DNA of 64,000 bases from Escherichia coli (GTDB lineage: Bacteria; Pseudomonadota; Gammaproteobacteria; Enterobacterales; Enterobacteriaceae). The notes beneath the pieces were generated by a model. The model ran no database searches. It worked only from the letters and a program-made list of their open reading frames with translations, and was not told where the DNA came from. The first letter of the stretch is position 1; each line of letters starts with the position of its first letter. The position numbers and the translations under genes are program-made. The DNA is taken from assembly GCF_044324785.1 (NCBI RefSeq), contig NZ_CP172127.1, one strand, 5' to 3'. Positions 41,744 to 44,220 of this stretch are shown here, piece by piece.

Positions 41744-42168
41744 ATCCCCTCCAGAAATATGTGACTTATCCTTTACGCTGGCAGTATAACGGGAAAGGCC
41801 TTACTAATACGTGATGACATCACATTTAAGCATGGCAAATGTCTGAAAAATGAGCGAATAATCGCGTTATACTCCCTCTTGCTGATAAGCCTGCAAAAAC
41901 AACAAAATCAAATAATTAGCATGATAAATTATTTTTTATTACGCCTAAAGGATTAAATCTTTCGCTTGCACTACACTGTCAATCAGACAAATGACTATAT
42001 GGGGCAACCCGCTGTTGCCCTAAATCAAATTTACTGGATTTATTTATCTGGCGAATGATTTGCCTTCGTTTTTAAAATAGCCGCGCATTATTTCCGTCGT
42101 CACTTTTTTACGACGACCCTATAAAACGACCATATTTTTCACAGGGTCAATTTTTAATTGAGGTGGAT

Positions 42169-42864
42169 ATGTTCAGAAAATTAGCAGCTGAATGTTTTGG
42201 TACTTTCTGGCTTGTTTTTGGTGGCTGTGGTAGTGCCGTACTGGCCGCAGGCTTCCCGGAATTAGGCATTGGTTTTGCCGGCGTGGCGTTGGCGTTCGGT
42301 CTGACCGTTCTGACGATGGCCTTTGCTGTTGGTCATATTTCTGGTGGTCATTTTAACCCGGCGGTCACTATTGGTTTATGGGCTGGCGGACGTTTCCCGG
42401 CAAAAGAAGTCGTTGGCTACGTAATTGCCCAGGTTGTCGGCGGTATTGTTGCGGCGGCGCTGCTGTATTTAATTGCCAGTGGTAAAACGGGTTTTGACGC
42501 GGCAGCCAGCGGTTTTGCTTCTAACGGTTATGGCGAGCATTCGCCAGGCGGTTATTCCATGCTTTCCGCGCTGGTAGTTGAACTGGTATTGAGTGCAGGT
42601 TTCCTGCTGGTGATCCACGGCGCAACCGACAAATTCGCTCCTGCTGGTTTTGCGCCGATCGCTATTGGTCTGGCCTTAACCCTGATTCACTTAATCAGTA
42701 TTCCGGTGACTAACACTTCTGTTAACCCGGCGCGCAGCACCGCGGTTGCTATCTTCCAGGGCGGCTGGGCATTAGAACAACTGTGGTTCTTCTGGGTGGT
42801 GCCAATTGTCGGCGGTATTATCGGTGGTCTGATTTACCGGACCCTGCTGGAAAAGCGTAATTAA
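42169..42864 (+). CDS. aqpZ: Aquaporin Z
   Basis: [29 protein letters not shown]... with two NPA motifs ([13 protein letters not shown]); the track start at 42163 is an upstream GTG. Confidence 0.95.
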
Positions 42865-43320
42865 TTAGCATTGGCATTTTATCTGCCCTGGTTGTTTTAT
42901 CTTCGACGTTACAAACCGCACGGGTGTTGGTGGCGTCAAAATCGCTGAAGCGTTCCCCGAAGGCCGGGGCAGCCCACATGGATGTGGGCTGAGGGCGCGT
43001 CTTACAGGACGTTACCTCGCGCCCGACCCGGTAGCCGAAGGGGATAAGCTGAAGGCACCGCGCAGCGGCGATTTTGTTCGCCAGAGCCCGGGGGTGCAGG
43101 GGGCGGCGGCGACTGGCCGCCCCCTGCGCGCTCCCTGCGCCAGTGGCTTTATATGGCATTGCACATGAAAGGAGCGCAACAATGCTAAACACTCATATAG
43201 AATTAAAAATCCCCCTCTGATGCATAACATTTCCTTTTAATTGCAACTTTACTCGTCCTTCCGCTTTCAGTAGTGTGTCATCGCGCATTTCGACTTCATC
43301 TTTGCAAGGACTGGGTTTTC

Positions 43321-44220
43321 ATGTTTTCTGGGCTGTTAATCATTCTGGTTCCCCTGATTGTGGGTTACCTCATTCCGCTTCGCCAAAAAGCTGCATTAAA
43401 AGTTATTAATCAGCTATTAAGCTGGATGGTTTACCTTATTCTCTTTTTTATGGGTATCAGTCTGGCGTTTCTCGATAACCTCGCCAGTAACCTGTTGGCG
43501 ATTCTGCATTATTCTGCCGTCAGTATTACCGTTATTTTACTGTGTAATATTGCCGCCCTTATGTGGCTGGAGCGAGGCCTGCCATGGCGCAACTACCACC
43601 AGCAAGAAAAACTCCCGTCGCGTATTGCGATGGCGCTGGAGTCGCTAAAACTGTGCGGCGTAGTAGTGATTGGTTTTGCCATTGGCCTGAGTGGACTGGC
43701 TTTCTTACAACATGCGACCGAAGCCAGTGAATACACCTTAATTCTGCTACTTTTCCTCGTCGGTATTCAGTTGCGCAATAATGGCATGACCTTAAAGCAG
43801 ATTGTCCTTAATCGCCGGGGAATGATTGTCGCCGTGGTGGTGGTTGCCAGTTCATTAATTGGTGGTTTAATTAACGCCTTTATTCTTGATCTTCCCATCA
43901 ATACCGCGCTGGCAATGGCCTCCGGTTTCGGCTGGTATTCTCTTTCCGGTATTTTATTGACCGAATCTTTTGGTCCGGTAATCGGGAGCGCGGCGTTTTT
44001 TAATGATCTGGCCCGTGAGCTGATTGCAATTATGTTGATCCCTGGGCTGATTCGCCGCAGCCGCTCTACCGCACTGGGCTTATGCGGTGCGACGTCGATG
44101 GATTTCACCCTGCCCGTTCTTCAACGTACTGGCGGGCTGGATATGGTCCCGGCGGCAATTGTTCACGGTTTTATTCTTAGCCTGTTAGTGCCGATCCTCA
44201 TCGCCTTTTTCTCTGCATAA
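43321..44220 (+). CDS. ybjE: Lysine exporter LysO (YbjE)
   Basis: 299-aa membrane protein from MFSGLLIILVPLIVGYLIPL... Confidence 0.9.
   Translation: MFSGLLIILVPLIVGYLIPLRQKAALKVINQLLSWMVYLILFFMGISLAFLDNLASNLLAILHYSAVSITVILLCNIAALMWLERGLPWRNYHQQEKLPSRIAMALESLKLCGVVVIGFAIGLSGLAFLQHATEASEYTLILLLFLVGIQLRNNGMTLKQIVLNRRGMIVAVVVVASSLIGGLINAFILDLPINTALAMASGFGWYSLSGILLTESFGPVIGSAAFFNDLARELIAIMLIPGLIRRSRSTALGLCGATSMDFTLPVLQRTGGLDMVPAAIVHGFILSLLVPILIAFFSA

Follow-up and report, generated by a model that had tools for sequence, protein, structure and literature searches.

A naturally reversed copy of the TRIP1a (RRS-lysO) repeat between aqpZ and lysO of Escherichia coli

The TRIP1 repeat family of Escherichia coli was first described in 1999 (Rudd 1999, Res Microbiol 150:653), and its members TRIP1a-e have since been surveyed in 6725 genomes (Li et al. 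2024, Genes 15:236, PMC10888264). In that survey the copy between aqpZ and ybjE (lysO) is TRIP1a, presence or absence varies among strains at five loci, and a 'reverse' orientation of TRIP1a was recorded in 1255 of the 4703 genomes that bear it. TRIP1a and TRIP1c are the same sequences as RRS-lysO and RRS-dusC, 222-bp GC-rich near-perfect inverted repeats (Pham 2023, NAR 51:5527; Pham 2024, NAR 52:6392) which each lie 650 kb from dif, on the two flanks of the Ter macrodomain (Pham et al.), and between 2023 and 2026 RRS was shown to be a programmed trigger of post-replication gaps at these positions (Pham 2023; Pham 2024; Kusi-Appauh 2026 preprint). Here we describe the aqpZ-lysO intergenic region of the E. 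coli genome GCF_044324785.1 (contig NZ_CP172127.1), analysed within a stretch of 64,000 nucleotides which we refer to as the window, and to which all unprefixed coordinates and strands apply. By sequence comparison the GC-rich segment in this region is TRIP1a, that is RRS-lysO, an element already known and with a published DNA-level mechanism, and it is inverted relative to its counterpart in K-12.

For each of the two RRS copies in K-12, the lagging-strand template is the G-rich strand, and RecA and SSB are found on approximately 2 kb of lagging-strand single-stranded DNA (ssDNA) from RRS onward, with relocation of RRS giving a new peak (Pham 2024, NAR 52:6392). The G-rich strand blocks DNA polymerases I, II and IV in vitro and impairs polymerase III in vivo, deletion of both copies is tolerated only with amplification of a 200-kb region or with another RRS present, and deleting or inverting both copies alters supercoiling genome-wide (Pham 2024). 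An engineered inverted RRS is viable and rescues the double deletion, yet gives no RecA or SSB peak in vivo (Pham 2024). In single-molecule experiments a gap of approximately 650 nt was left at approximately 100% of replisome encounters when the G-rich strand was the lagging-strand template, compared with gaps of approximately 325 nt, still on the lagging strand, in approximately 66% of encounters for the opposite orientation (Kusi-Appauh 2026 preprint); as gaps are fewer and shorter in the latter, the C-rich strand is the weaker block. The RRS authors attribute the block to a G-quadruplex (G4) and propose that it relieves topological stress around the Ter macrodomain (Pham et al.). According to these authors, only one other bacterial sequence is known to trigger programmed gaps through a G4, the pilE G4 element of Neisseria gonorrhoeae. 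That element differs from RRS in having an unrelated sequence and another purpose, pilin antigenic variation. It depends on the promoter of a small RNA, and we know of no counterpart of this promoter at TRIP1a.

The repeated unit in the window is a core of 274 bp (42909-43182, G-rich sense strand on the + strand), placed between the aqpZ stop (42864) and the lysO start (43322), which is the TRIP1a locus. Its GC content is 65.0%, rising to 69.7% in the 221-bp counterpart of the published RRS (42927-43147), compared with 39.9% for what remains of the aqpZ-lysO intergenic sequence. The core shares 91.6% identity over 275 nt with K-12 TRIP1a (found between these two genes as well, on the other strand with respect to the flanks), 91.9% with K-12 TRIP1c (270-275 nt aligned), and 93.5% with the yohP-dusC copies of other strains, and it aligns with TRIP1b in two blocks of 95% and 87% identity. 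The RRS-equivalent part matches each of the K-12 RRS copies at 207 of 221 positions, and the published G4-forming motif GGGGGTGCAGGGGGCGGCGG is present as an exact copy on the + strand at 43090-43109 and absent from the - strand. This exact motif and the 207/221 match make the identity of the element secure, and like RRS-lysO it adjoins lysO. With TRIP1a of the TRIP1 family the window copy has in common the aqpZ-ybjE/lysO locus, a length of approximately 270 bp, a GC content of 62-65% and a predicted multibranch ('double-Y') fold; no essential feature sets it apart, and it is a member of the family, in the form of the minority reversed allele with its own junctions and without the aqpZ terminator hairpin of K-12.

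When 5426 complete E. coli genomes were searched by megablast with the intergenic region, all but one (5425) had matches, which amount to 22271 places with a median of four per genome, and a search of the 64-kb window itself gave no copy beyond this one. Other copies were seen at yohP-dusC, at putP-efeU, where the repeat is shorter through an internal deletion, and at alx-sstT. Outside these loci, the copies in Pseudocitrobacter, Kluyvera and the locus L134 have no lysO or dusC homologue adjoining them.

The original prediction for this region, made from the letters of the window, had described a GC-rich stretch of roughly 250 bp between AT-rich flanks at 42900-43150, and this was borne out: in 100-nt windows the GC fraction is 0.63-0.75 over 42900-43149 and 0.35-0.45 in both flanks, and the predicted limits nearly bracket the published element. 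Both of the long perfect stems it had noted are present, one of 10 bp formed by CAGCCCACAT and ATGTGGGCTG (42970-42979 with 42982-42991, arms 2 nt apart) and one of 12 bp formed by GCAGGGGGCGGC and GCCGCCCCCTGC (43096-43107 with 43116-43127, arms 8 nt apart). It had also set aside the REP/PU and ERIC families. We agree, as no Rfam family reached its gathering score in the region and with a cut-off of E <= 10 the interval 42000-44000 gave no naRNA4 (REP-derived) or other repeat-derived match; REP/BIME and ERIC/IRU also differ from the element in length and sequence, and for ERIC the exclusion is on length and sequence only, with no ERIC model run. The overlapping minus-strand open reading frames (ORFs), which it took to be spurious, are indeed so: the 124-aa and 72-aa ORFs on the - strand, like a 48-aa ORF on the + strand, have no Pfam match, and RefSeq annotates nothing at the position of the element in a 99.8%-identical genome. 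The Rfam scan and the K-12 comparison proposed at the time gave a best, sub-threshold match to TwoAYGGAY at 30.7 bits and the same element at 91.6% identity, inverted relative to the flanking genes; it is neither single-copy nor identical to K-12, and its structure is conserved in other species. Of the suggested 'small repeat-family element or structured RNA', the former holds, the element being a TRIP1 repeat found in 5425/5426 genomes, while the latter is possible but less likely, with a structure selected on one strand and an activity demonstrated at the DNA level only. What the original prediction had not recognised was that the element has a name and a studied function, and that it is inverted compared with K-12.

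The element is inverted with respect to both aqpZ and lysO. The window + strand has a GC skew of -0.043, and carries two Chi sites versus ten on the other strand and two KOPS sites versus six. From these three features it is clear that the + strand, with the G4 motif, aqpZ and lysO, is the leading-strand template, so that the G4 strand here is not the lagging-strand template, as it is in the native orientation of RRS. The reversed direction marks an orientation variant of the same element, and is no argument against its identity. Orientation was tallied separately for each locus in the 5426 complete E. coli genomes: at aqpZ-lysO the K-12-type allele was found in 4028 genomes and the reversed allele, as in the window, in 895 (16.5%), and at yohP-dusC the corresponding numbers are 3309 and 2000 (37%), counts which agree in direction with those of Li et al. 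2024 (PMC10888264). In O157:H7 strains there are two copies altogether, with the reversed allele at both lysO and dusC, and in strain E69 both copies are likewise reversed in one genome, 1.21 Mb apart. In E. whittamii the lysO copy has the K-12 orientation and the dusC copy is reversed, and some genomes have a single copy which is reversed. No discussion of how frequent the reversed state is in nature (16.5% at lysO, 37% at dusC, both in O157:H7) was found in the RRS papers.

The two allele types at aqpZ-lysO differ in more than the direction of the core. In the window an allele-specific cassette of 352 bp (42868-43219, + strand) lies between flanks shared with K-12, namely TAATTA, which follows the aqpZ stop, and ATGCATAACATTTCC, which lies upstream of lysO, whereas the K-12 cassette measures 390 bp and consists of the same core in opposite orientation together with the aqpZ terminator hairpin. 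This hairpin (AAGGCCTGGCGTAATGTCAGGCCTTTTTTT, L001 2785-2852 in K-12) is missing from the window allele (42865-42908), where an AT-rich left junction found only in the reversed allele (42868-42908, + strand) is without a terminator-like hairpin. No terminator was predicted between aqpZ and lysO in the window allele, and because of this, transcription of aqpZ in strains of this allele type may continue across the element as far as lysO. A simple inversion in situ was rejected for both loci, as outside the core the allele types at lysO and at dusC are not reverse complements of each other. Symmetric inversions around Ter between TRIP1a and TRIP1c were also discarded, by reasoning and not by computation, since they cannot flip the element relative to both of its flanks.

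The element is predicted to fold with high stability on either strand. Against dinucleotide-preserving shuffles of the same 277-nt segment, the RNA folding energy of -150.2 kcal/mol corresponds to z = -4.9 (reached by 0/200 shuffles), and as ssDNA the + strand folds at -81.9 kcal/mol (z = -4.8) and the - strand at -77.1 kcal/mol (z = -5.4). An alignment of 22 copies from E. coli, E. albertii, E. whittamii, Pseudocitrobacter, Kluyvera and one further Enterobacteriaceae genome gave a consensus fold of 73 base pairs, 14 of which have compensatory double changes. Standard pairs occupy 98.4% of the alignment cells, and none of 500 shuffles matched the observed values; in a control in which pairing partners were shifted by 1-3 columns, pairing fell to 40-46% of cells and double changes to 1-3 pairs. 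Most differences between the window and K-12 alleles are themselves compensated pairs (columns 39-149, 42-146 and 51-136). Among one-sided changes there are 64 G·U cells in 18 pairs versus 4 A·C cells in 3 pairs, and approximately 24 to 4 when two invariant U·G pairs are left out, an asymmetry from which we conclude that selection acts on the fold of the G-rich strand specifically; folding of ssDNA and of an RNA of the same sense fit this equally well.

On the + strand of the window this fold starts with a multibranch domain (42927-43091), which is the part that aligns with the Rfam family TwoAYGGAY and which is closed by P1, a long stem with its arms at 42927-42944 and 43069-43091. It contains hairpin 1 (CAGCCCACAUGGAUGUGGGCUG, 42970-42991) with an AUGGAU loop, invariant in 22/22 enteric copies aligned, and hairpin 2 (GGGCGCG...UUACAGGACGUUA...CGCGCCC, 42993-43024) with CAGGACG in its loop, where K-12 has ACAGGGAUGU and Kluyvera ACAUGGAUGU. 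Downstream, the 5' arm of the 12-bp perfect GC hairpin (43096-43127) overlaps the G4 motif, and in other copies two pairs of this hairpin (columns 203-218 and 206-215) have compensatory changes from C-G to A-U. A third hairpin, GCGCUCC...GGAGCGC (43128-43177), is helix 13 of the consensus with two compensated pairs, and it sequesters a Shine-Dalgarno-like GGAG by pairing. Right after the core there is an ORF of 12 codons (MLNTHIELKIPL, 43182-43220, + strand), which is not conserved between copies and is probably no gene. The element is preceded by aqpZ (42169-42864, + strand), the ORF of which matches the 696-bp RefSeq aqpZ of the 99.8%-identical genome, and followed by the lysO upstream region (43220-43321), common to K-12 and 98-100% identical, and the lysO (ybjE) coding sequence (43322-44220), both on the + strand.

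We therefore favour, with a probability of about 0.85, the reading that the segment is the TRIP1a/RRS-lysO repeat of approximately 275 bp, which occupies a few fixed intergenic positions to both sides of the terminus, chiefly aqpZ-lysO and yohP-dusC, acting as a gap trigger in K-12. Identity, locus, motif, orientation, copy number and selected structure come from the present analysis, and gap formation is taken from the K-12 literature. According to the published K-12 experiments, the element adopts a very stable fold when single-stranded during replication, which stops the polymerase of the lagging strand, so that a transient ssDNA gap of at most approximately 2 kb is left, bound by RecA and SSB. 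In the window copy it is the G-rich strand that forms the leading-strand template, with the weaker C-rich strand as lagging-strand template; this is the state of the authors' engineered 'inverted RRS', which had no RecA or SSB peak in vivo and gave weaker gaps in vitro. By extension from those constructs, the window copy should be a weaker or silent gap trigger which is still able to replace the native form.

Several observations weigh against this reading. An orientation-dependent model sits uneasily with 895/5426 reversed lysO alleles and 2000/5426 reversed dusC alleles, with O157:H7 and E69 having both loci reversed, and with the genomes in which a single copy is reversed, and what natural reversed alleles would do as gap triggers is extrapolated from engineered constructs. 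The nature of the block can also be questioned: the G4 motif fails the canonical pattern of four runs of three G, and its G-run doubles as the 5' arm of the GC hairpin, which is kept by compensatory changes, so that the hairpins instead of a G4 may be the structure which blocks the polymerase. The canonical pattern was found in only two of 88 non-enteric loci, indicating that a G4 is no family-wide feature, and the main text of the RRS paper makes no mention of hairpins. Finally, the total invariance of the two GGA loops is left unexplained by a purely structural role in DNA.

These loops are the starting point for an alternative in which the G-rich strand acts, additionally or instead, as an RNA: a relative of TwoAYGGAY (RF01731) with two CsrA-type GGA hairpins, which would bind or titrate CsrA, or bring the flanking transcript under CsrA control. 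We consider this possible, although rather unlikely. TwoAYGGAY is the top Rfam match of the region (42925-43089, + strand, 30.7 bits, E = 0.028), it is also the top match of the K-12 copies, with 30.6 and 30.9 bits and again on this strand, and the family is in one Rfam clan (CL00106) with RsmY, but all these scores are under the gathering threshold of 43 bits. Like the members described by Weinberg et al. 2010, TRIP1 has two adjacent hairpins, with loops resembling AYGGAY, within a long P1, whose arms here have compensatory changes, and the family likewise occurs in Gammaproteobacteria, often in multiple copies; the Psychromonas members of the 2010 alignment are also multi-copy and have the identical loop ACAUGGAUGU. 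The part of that alignment which was examined did not include the hairpin sequence of E. coli. The hairpin 1 loop (CACAUGGAUGUG) is invariant across copies, with AUGGAU agreeing with the family motif. Hairpin 2 departs from a strict AYGGAY in the window and in K-12, its loop being UUACAGGACGUUA in the window (CAGGAC), UUACAGGGAUGUUA in K-12 (AGGGAU) and ACAUGGAUGU in Kluyvera (AUGGAU, as in L134), and TRIP1 further differs from TwoAYGGAY by its extra GC hairpin and third hairpin and by a far higher GC content. With regard to CsrA itself, the loops ACAUGGAUGU and (U)UACAGGACGU or ACAGGGAUGU fit both the consensus RUACARGGAUGU from in vitro selection (SELEX) and the CsrB repeat CAGGA(U/A/C)G, the two GGA motifs are 27 nt apart, within the 10-63 nt range of dual-site binding by a CsrA dimer, and hairpin 1 is unchanged in 22 copies from four genera. 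TRIP1 resembles CsrB, CsrC, RsmY and RsmZ in these loops and their dual-site spacing, and differs from them in having two sites versus 9-22, no known promoter or transcript, and unusually long and stable stems; the 9-bp stem of hairpin 1 is long for a CsrA site, as SELEX ligands favoured four pairs or fewer.

A scan for the two-loop arrangement with one genome per species gave at least 120 loci versus approximately six expected by our own calculation (not a software output), with those listed mainly in Gammaproteobacteria and some in Clostridia (Lachnospiraceae), the published range of TwoAYGGAY, and many of the listed loci are short repeats of 65-290 nt, several per genome and often at contig ends. 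When 20 two-loop loci (16 gammaproteobacterial) were scanned with Rfam, only two Lachnospiraceae loci passed the TwoAYGGAY threshold (89.8 and 75.5 bits), and a sub-threshold scan of 16 loci added one passing match, an element beside the Pseudocitrobacter TRIP1 copy at 49.2 bits; as only Lachnospiraceae among the selected loci pass, the Rfam model cannot settle the membership of the gammaproteobacterial ones. Selection on the G-rich strand (64 G·U versus 4 A·C cells) is as expected for an RNA, but such a wobble asymmetry is also expected from ssDNA folding of that strand. In the window aqpZ and lysO have the same direction as the sense strand, with no terminator predicted between them, and a preprint proposes TwoAYGGAY RNAs as targets of CsrA. 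Against this, consensus scans found no conserved promoter upstream of the copies, and promoter and terminator scans of the window and K-12 intergenic regions gave nothing relevant; neither ybjE nor dusC is flagged in K-12 tables from CsrA cross-linking and immunoprecipitation and from RNA-seq; and the activity at the DNA level was reproduced from purified replisomes in the absence of RNA (Kusi-Appauh 2026 preprint). A role in RNA would be indifferent to the direction of replication, and would explain why both orientations are common and why even all copies of a genome can be reversed. The broader proposal, that TRIP1/RRS are diverged enterobacterial members of TwoAYGGAY with a CsrA role in RNA that is independent of replication direction, with the G-rich-strand fold and its two GGA loops as the object of selection, and with gap triggering as second function or by-product, is in our opinion distinctly unlikely; the link between TRIP1 and CsrA/TwoAYGGAY is unproven, and the main text of the RRS and TRIP1 papers mentions neither CsrA nor Rfam. 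It is improbable, too, that the element is a selfish or decaying repeat resembling a miniature inverted-repeat transposable element (MITE), without host function, whose stable structure would affect replication only incidentally. Strains differ in whether the repeat is present at each of five loci (Li et al. 2024, PMC10888264), both orientations occur at two loci, the TRIP1b, L007 and L008 copies are internal-deletion derivatives between short direct repeats, other Gammaproteobacteria have related short repeats in several places per genome, often at the ends of contigs, and the Pseudocitrobacter, Kluyvera and L134 copies lie away from lysO and dusC homologues, all as one would expect of such a repeat. 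However, we found neither terminal inverted repeats nor a target-site duplication nor a transposase associated with the element, purifying selection is strong (98.4% of cells paired, 14 compensated pairs), and at least one copy is conditionally essential in K-12 (Pham 2024, NAR 52:6392). Very improbable is a cis-acting element specific to this locus, either an aqpZ terminator or 3' untranslated region or a lysO leader, which is suggested by the position between the aqpZ stop and the lysO start on their strand, by the lack of the K-12 aqpZ terminator hairpin in this allele, and by the GGAG and ATG at the 3' end. The same sequence is found at the unrelated loci yohP-dusC, putP-efeU, alx-sstT and copA-ybaP, in both orientations, a distribution which largely refutes a terminator or leader; in addition, no U-tract terminator was predicted, the GGAG forms part of a conserved helix, and there is no conservation of the short ORFs behind it. 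The GGAG and ATG had also raised a small-protein or type I toxin locus, which was rejected as the downstream peptides (MLNTHIELKIPL, MMNQHITTS and MRD) are not conserved, TRIP1b has no peptide, and the GGAG is paired.

The TRIP1a/RRS-lysO reading being preferred, the comparison of copies also informs on how the repeat changes within and between genomes. The K-12 copies a and c (L001 2510-2784 at lysO, and L010 3122-3389) are identical at 218 of 220 positions, compared with 207/221 for the window copy versus K-12 a; alleles of different strains at the same locus differ by approximately 6-8%, and the O157 copies share variant bases with each other. As copies within a genome are closer than alleles at one locus across strains, this suggests concerted evolution of the lysO and dusC copies, by gene conversion or co-inheritance. 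Short derivatives were found in the aqpZ-lysO region of strains 04-00955 and GU2018_CL13 (L007 301-621 and L008 301-621), in which the two-hairpin core, corresponding to approximately 42964-43086 of the window, is lost with a breakpoint between the short direct repeats CCGGGG and CCCGGGGG, and which are additionally without 11 nt of the 3' arm of the GC hairpin. K-12 TRIP1b (L011 4856-4998) has a nearly identical internal deletion, so that the event has recurred, as slippage across a stable domain closed by a stem would lead one to expect. A copy of TRIP1b is present on the 243-kb plasmid pEC16-AU-EG1 (NZ_CP194962.1; L006 2501-2643) within a captured chromosomal putA-putP-efeUOB segment, which explains at least part of the few plasmid-borne matches. 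At alx-sstT, comparison of the occupied E. whittamii site with K-12 gave no clean insertion with transposon signatures: E. whittamii has TRIP1d (L110 5121-5517), and K-12 holds an unrelated GC-rich palindromic repeat (L135 3049-3262) with arms CCCTCTCCC...GGGAGAGGG and GGGTGAGGG...CCCTCACCC. This intergenic slot is thus occupied by different repeat families in different lineages, and without target-site duplication.

A number of related arrangements were observed outside E. coli. In Pseudocitrobacter faecalis (L033 2160-2380, +) and at L134 (1594-1657, -), a second GC-rich two-hairpin element lies head-to-head with the TRIP1-like copy at a distance of approximately 80-170 nt, forming a divergent pair; its loops are CCAUGGAUGG and GACAGGACGUC, followed by a G-rich hairpin, and it matches TwoAYGGAY at 49.2 bits (L033) and 37.8 bits (L134). 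In Nitrincola schmidtii, an above-threshold match to group II intron domain V/VI (L052 54-126, +, 48.1 bits) ends approximately 150 nt upstream of an element with two AYGGAY loops on the same strand (277-310). Some non-enteric Gammaproteobacteria have tandem GGA hairpins approximately 48-53 nt apart (L060-L063, L048 12804-12895 and L066 4482-4571), which resemble the multi-site sponge RNAs of the Csr/Rsm type, with a weak RsmY match of 19.3 bits at L066.

With its G-rich strand on the leading-strand template, the window is a natural example of a state which the RRS authors had to engineer. This state is common and can involve every copy in a genome, as in O157:H7 and E69, and it bears on the orientation-dependent model of a 'topological relief valve' outside K-12. 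The frequency of the reversed allele suggests a challenge to that model, and the GGA and GC hairpins suggest two revisions, a CsrA/RNA role and a hairpin block, with the compensatory changes in the GC hairpin raising the possibility that hairpins, and not a G-quadruplex, form the replication block. The literatures on TRIP1, RRS and TwoAYGGAY/CsrA appear to describe related things with little or no cross-reference, and if CsrA does bind the invariant GGA hairpins, the main post-transcriptional regulator of enterobacterial physiology would be linked to a chromosomal element that is conditionally essential.

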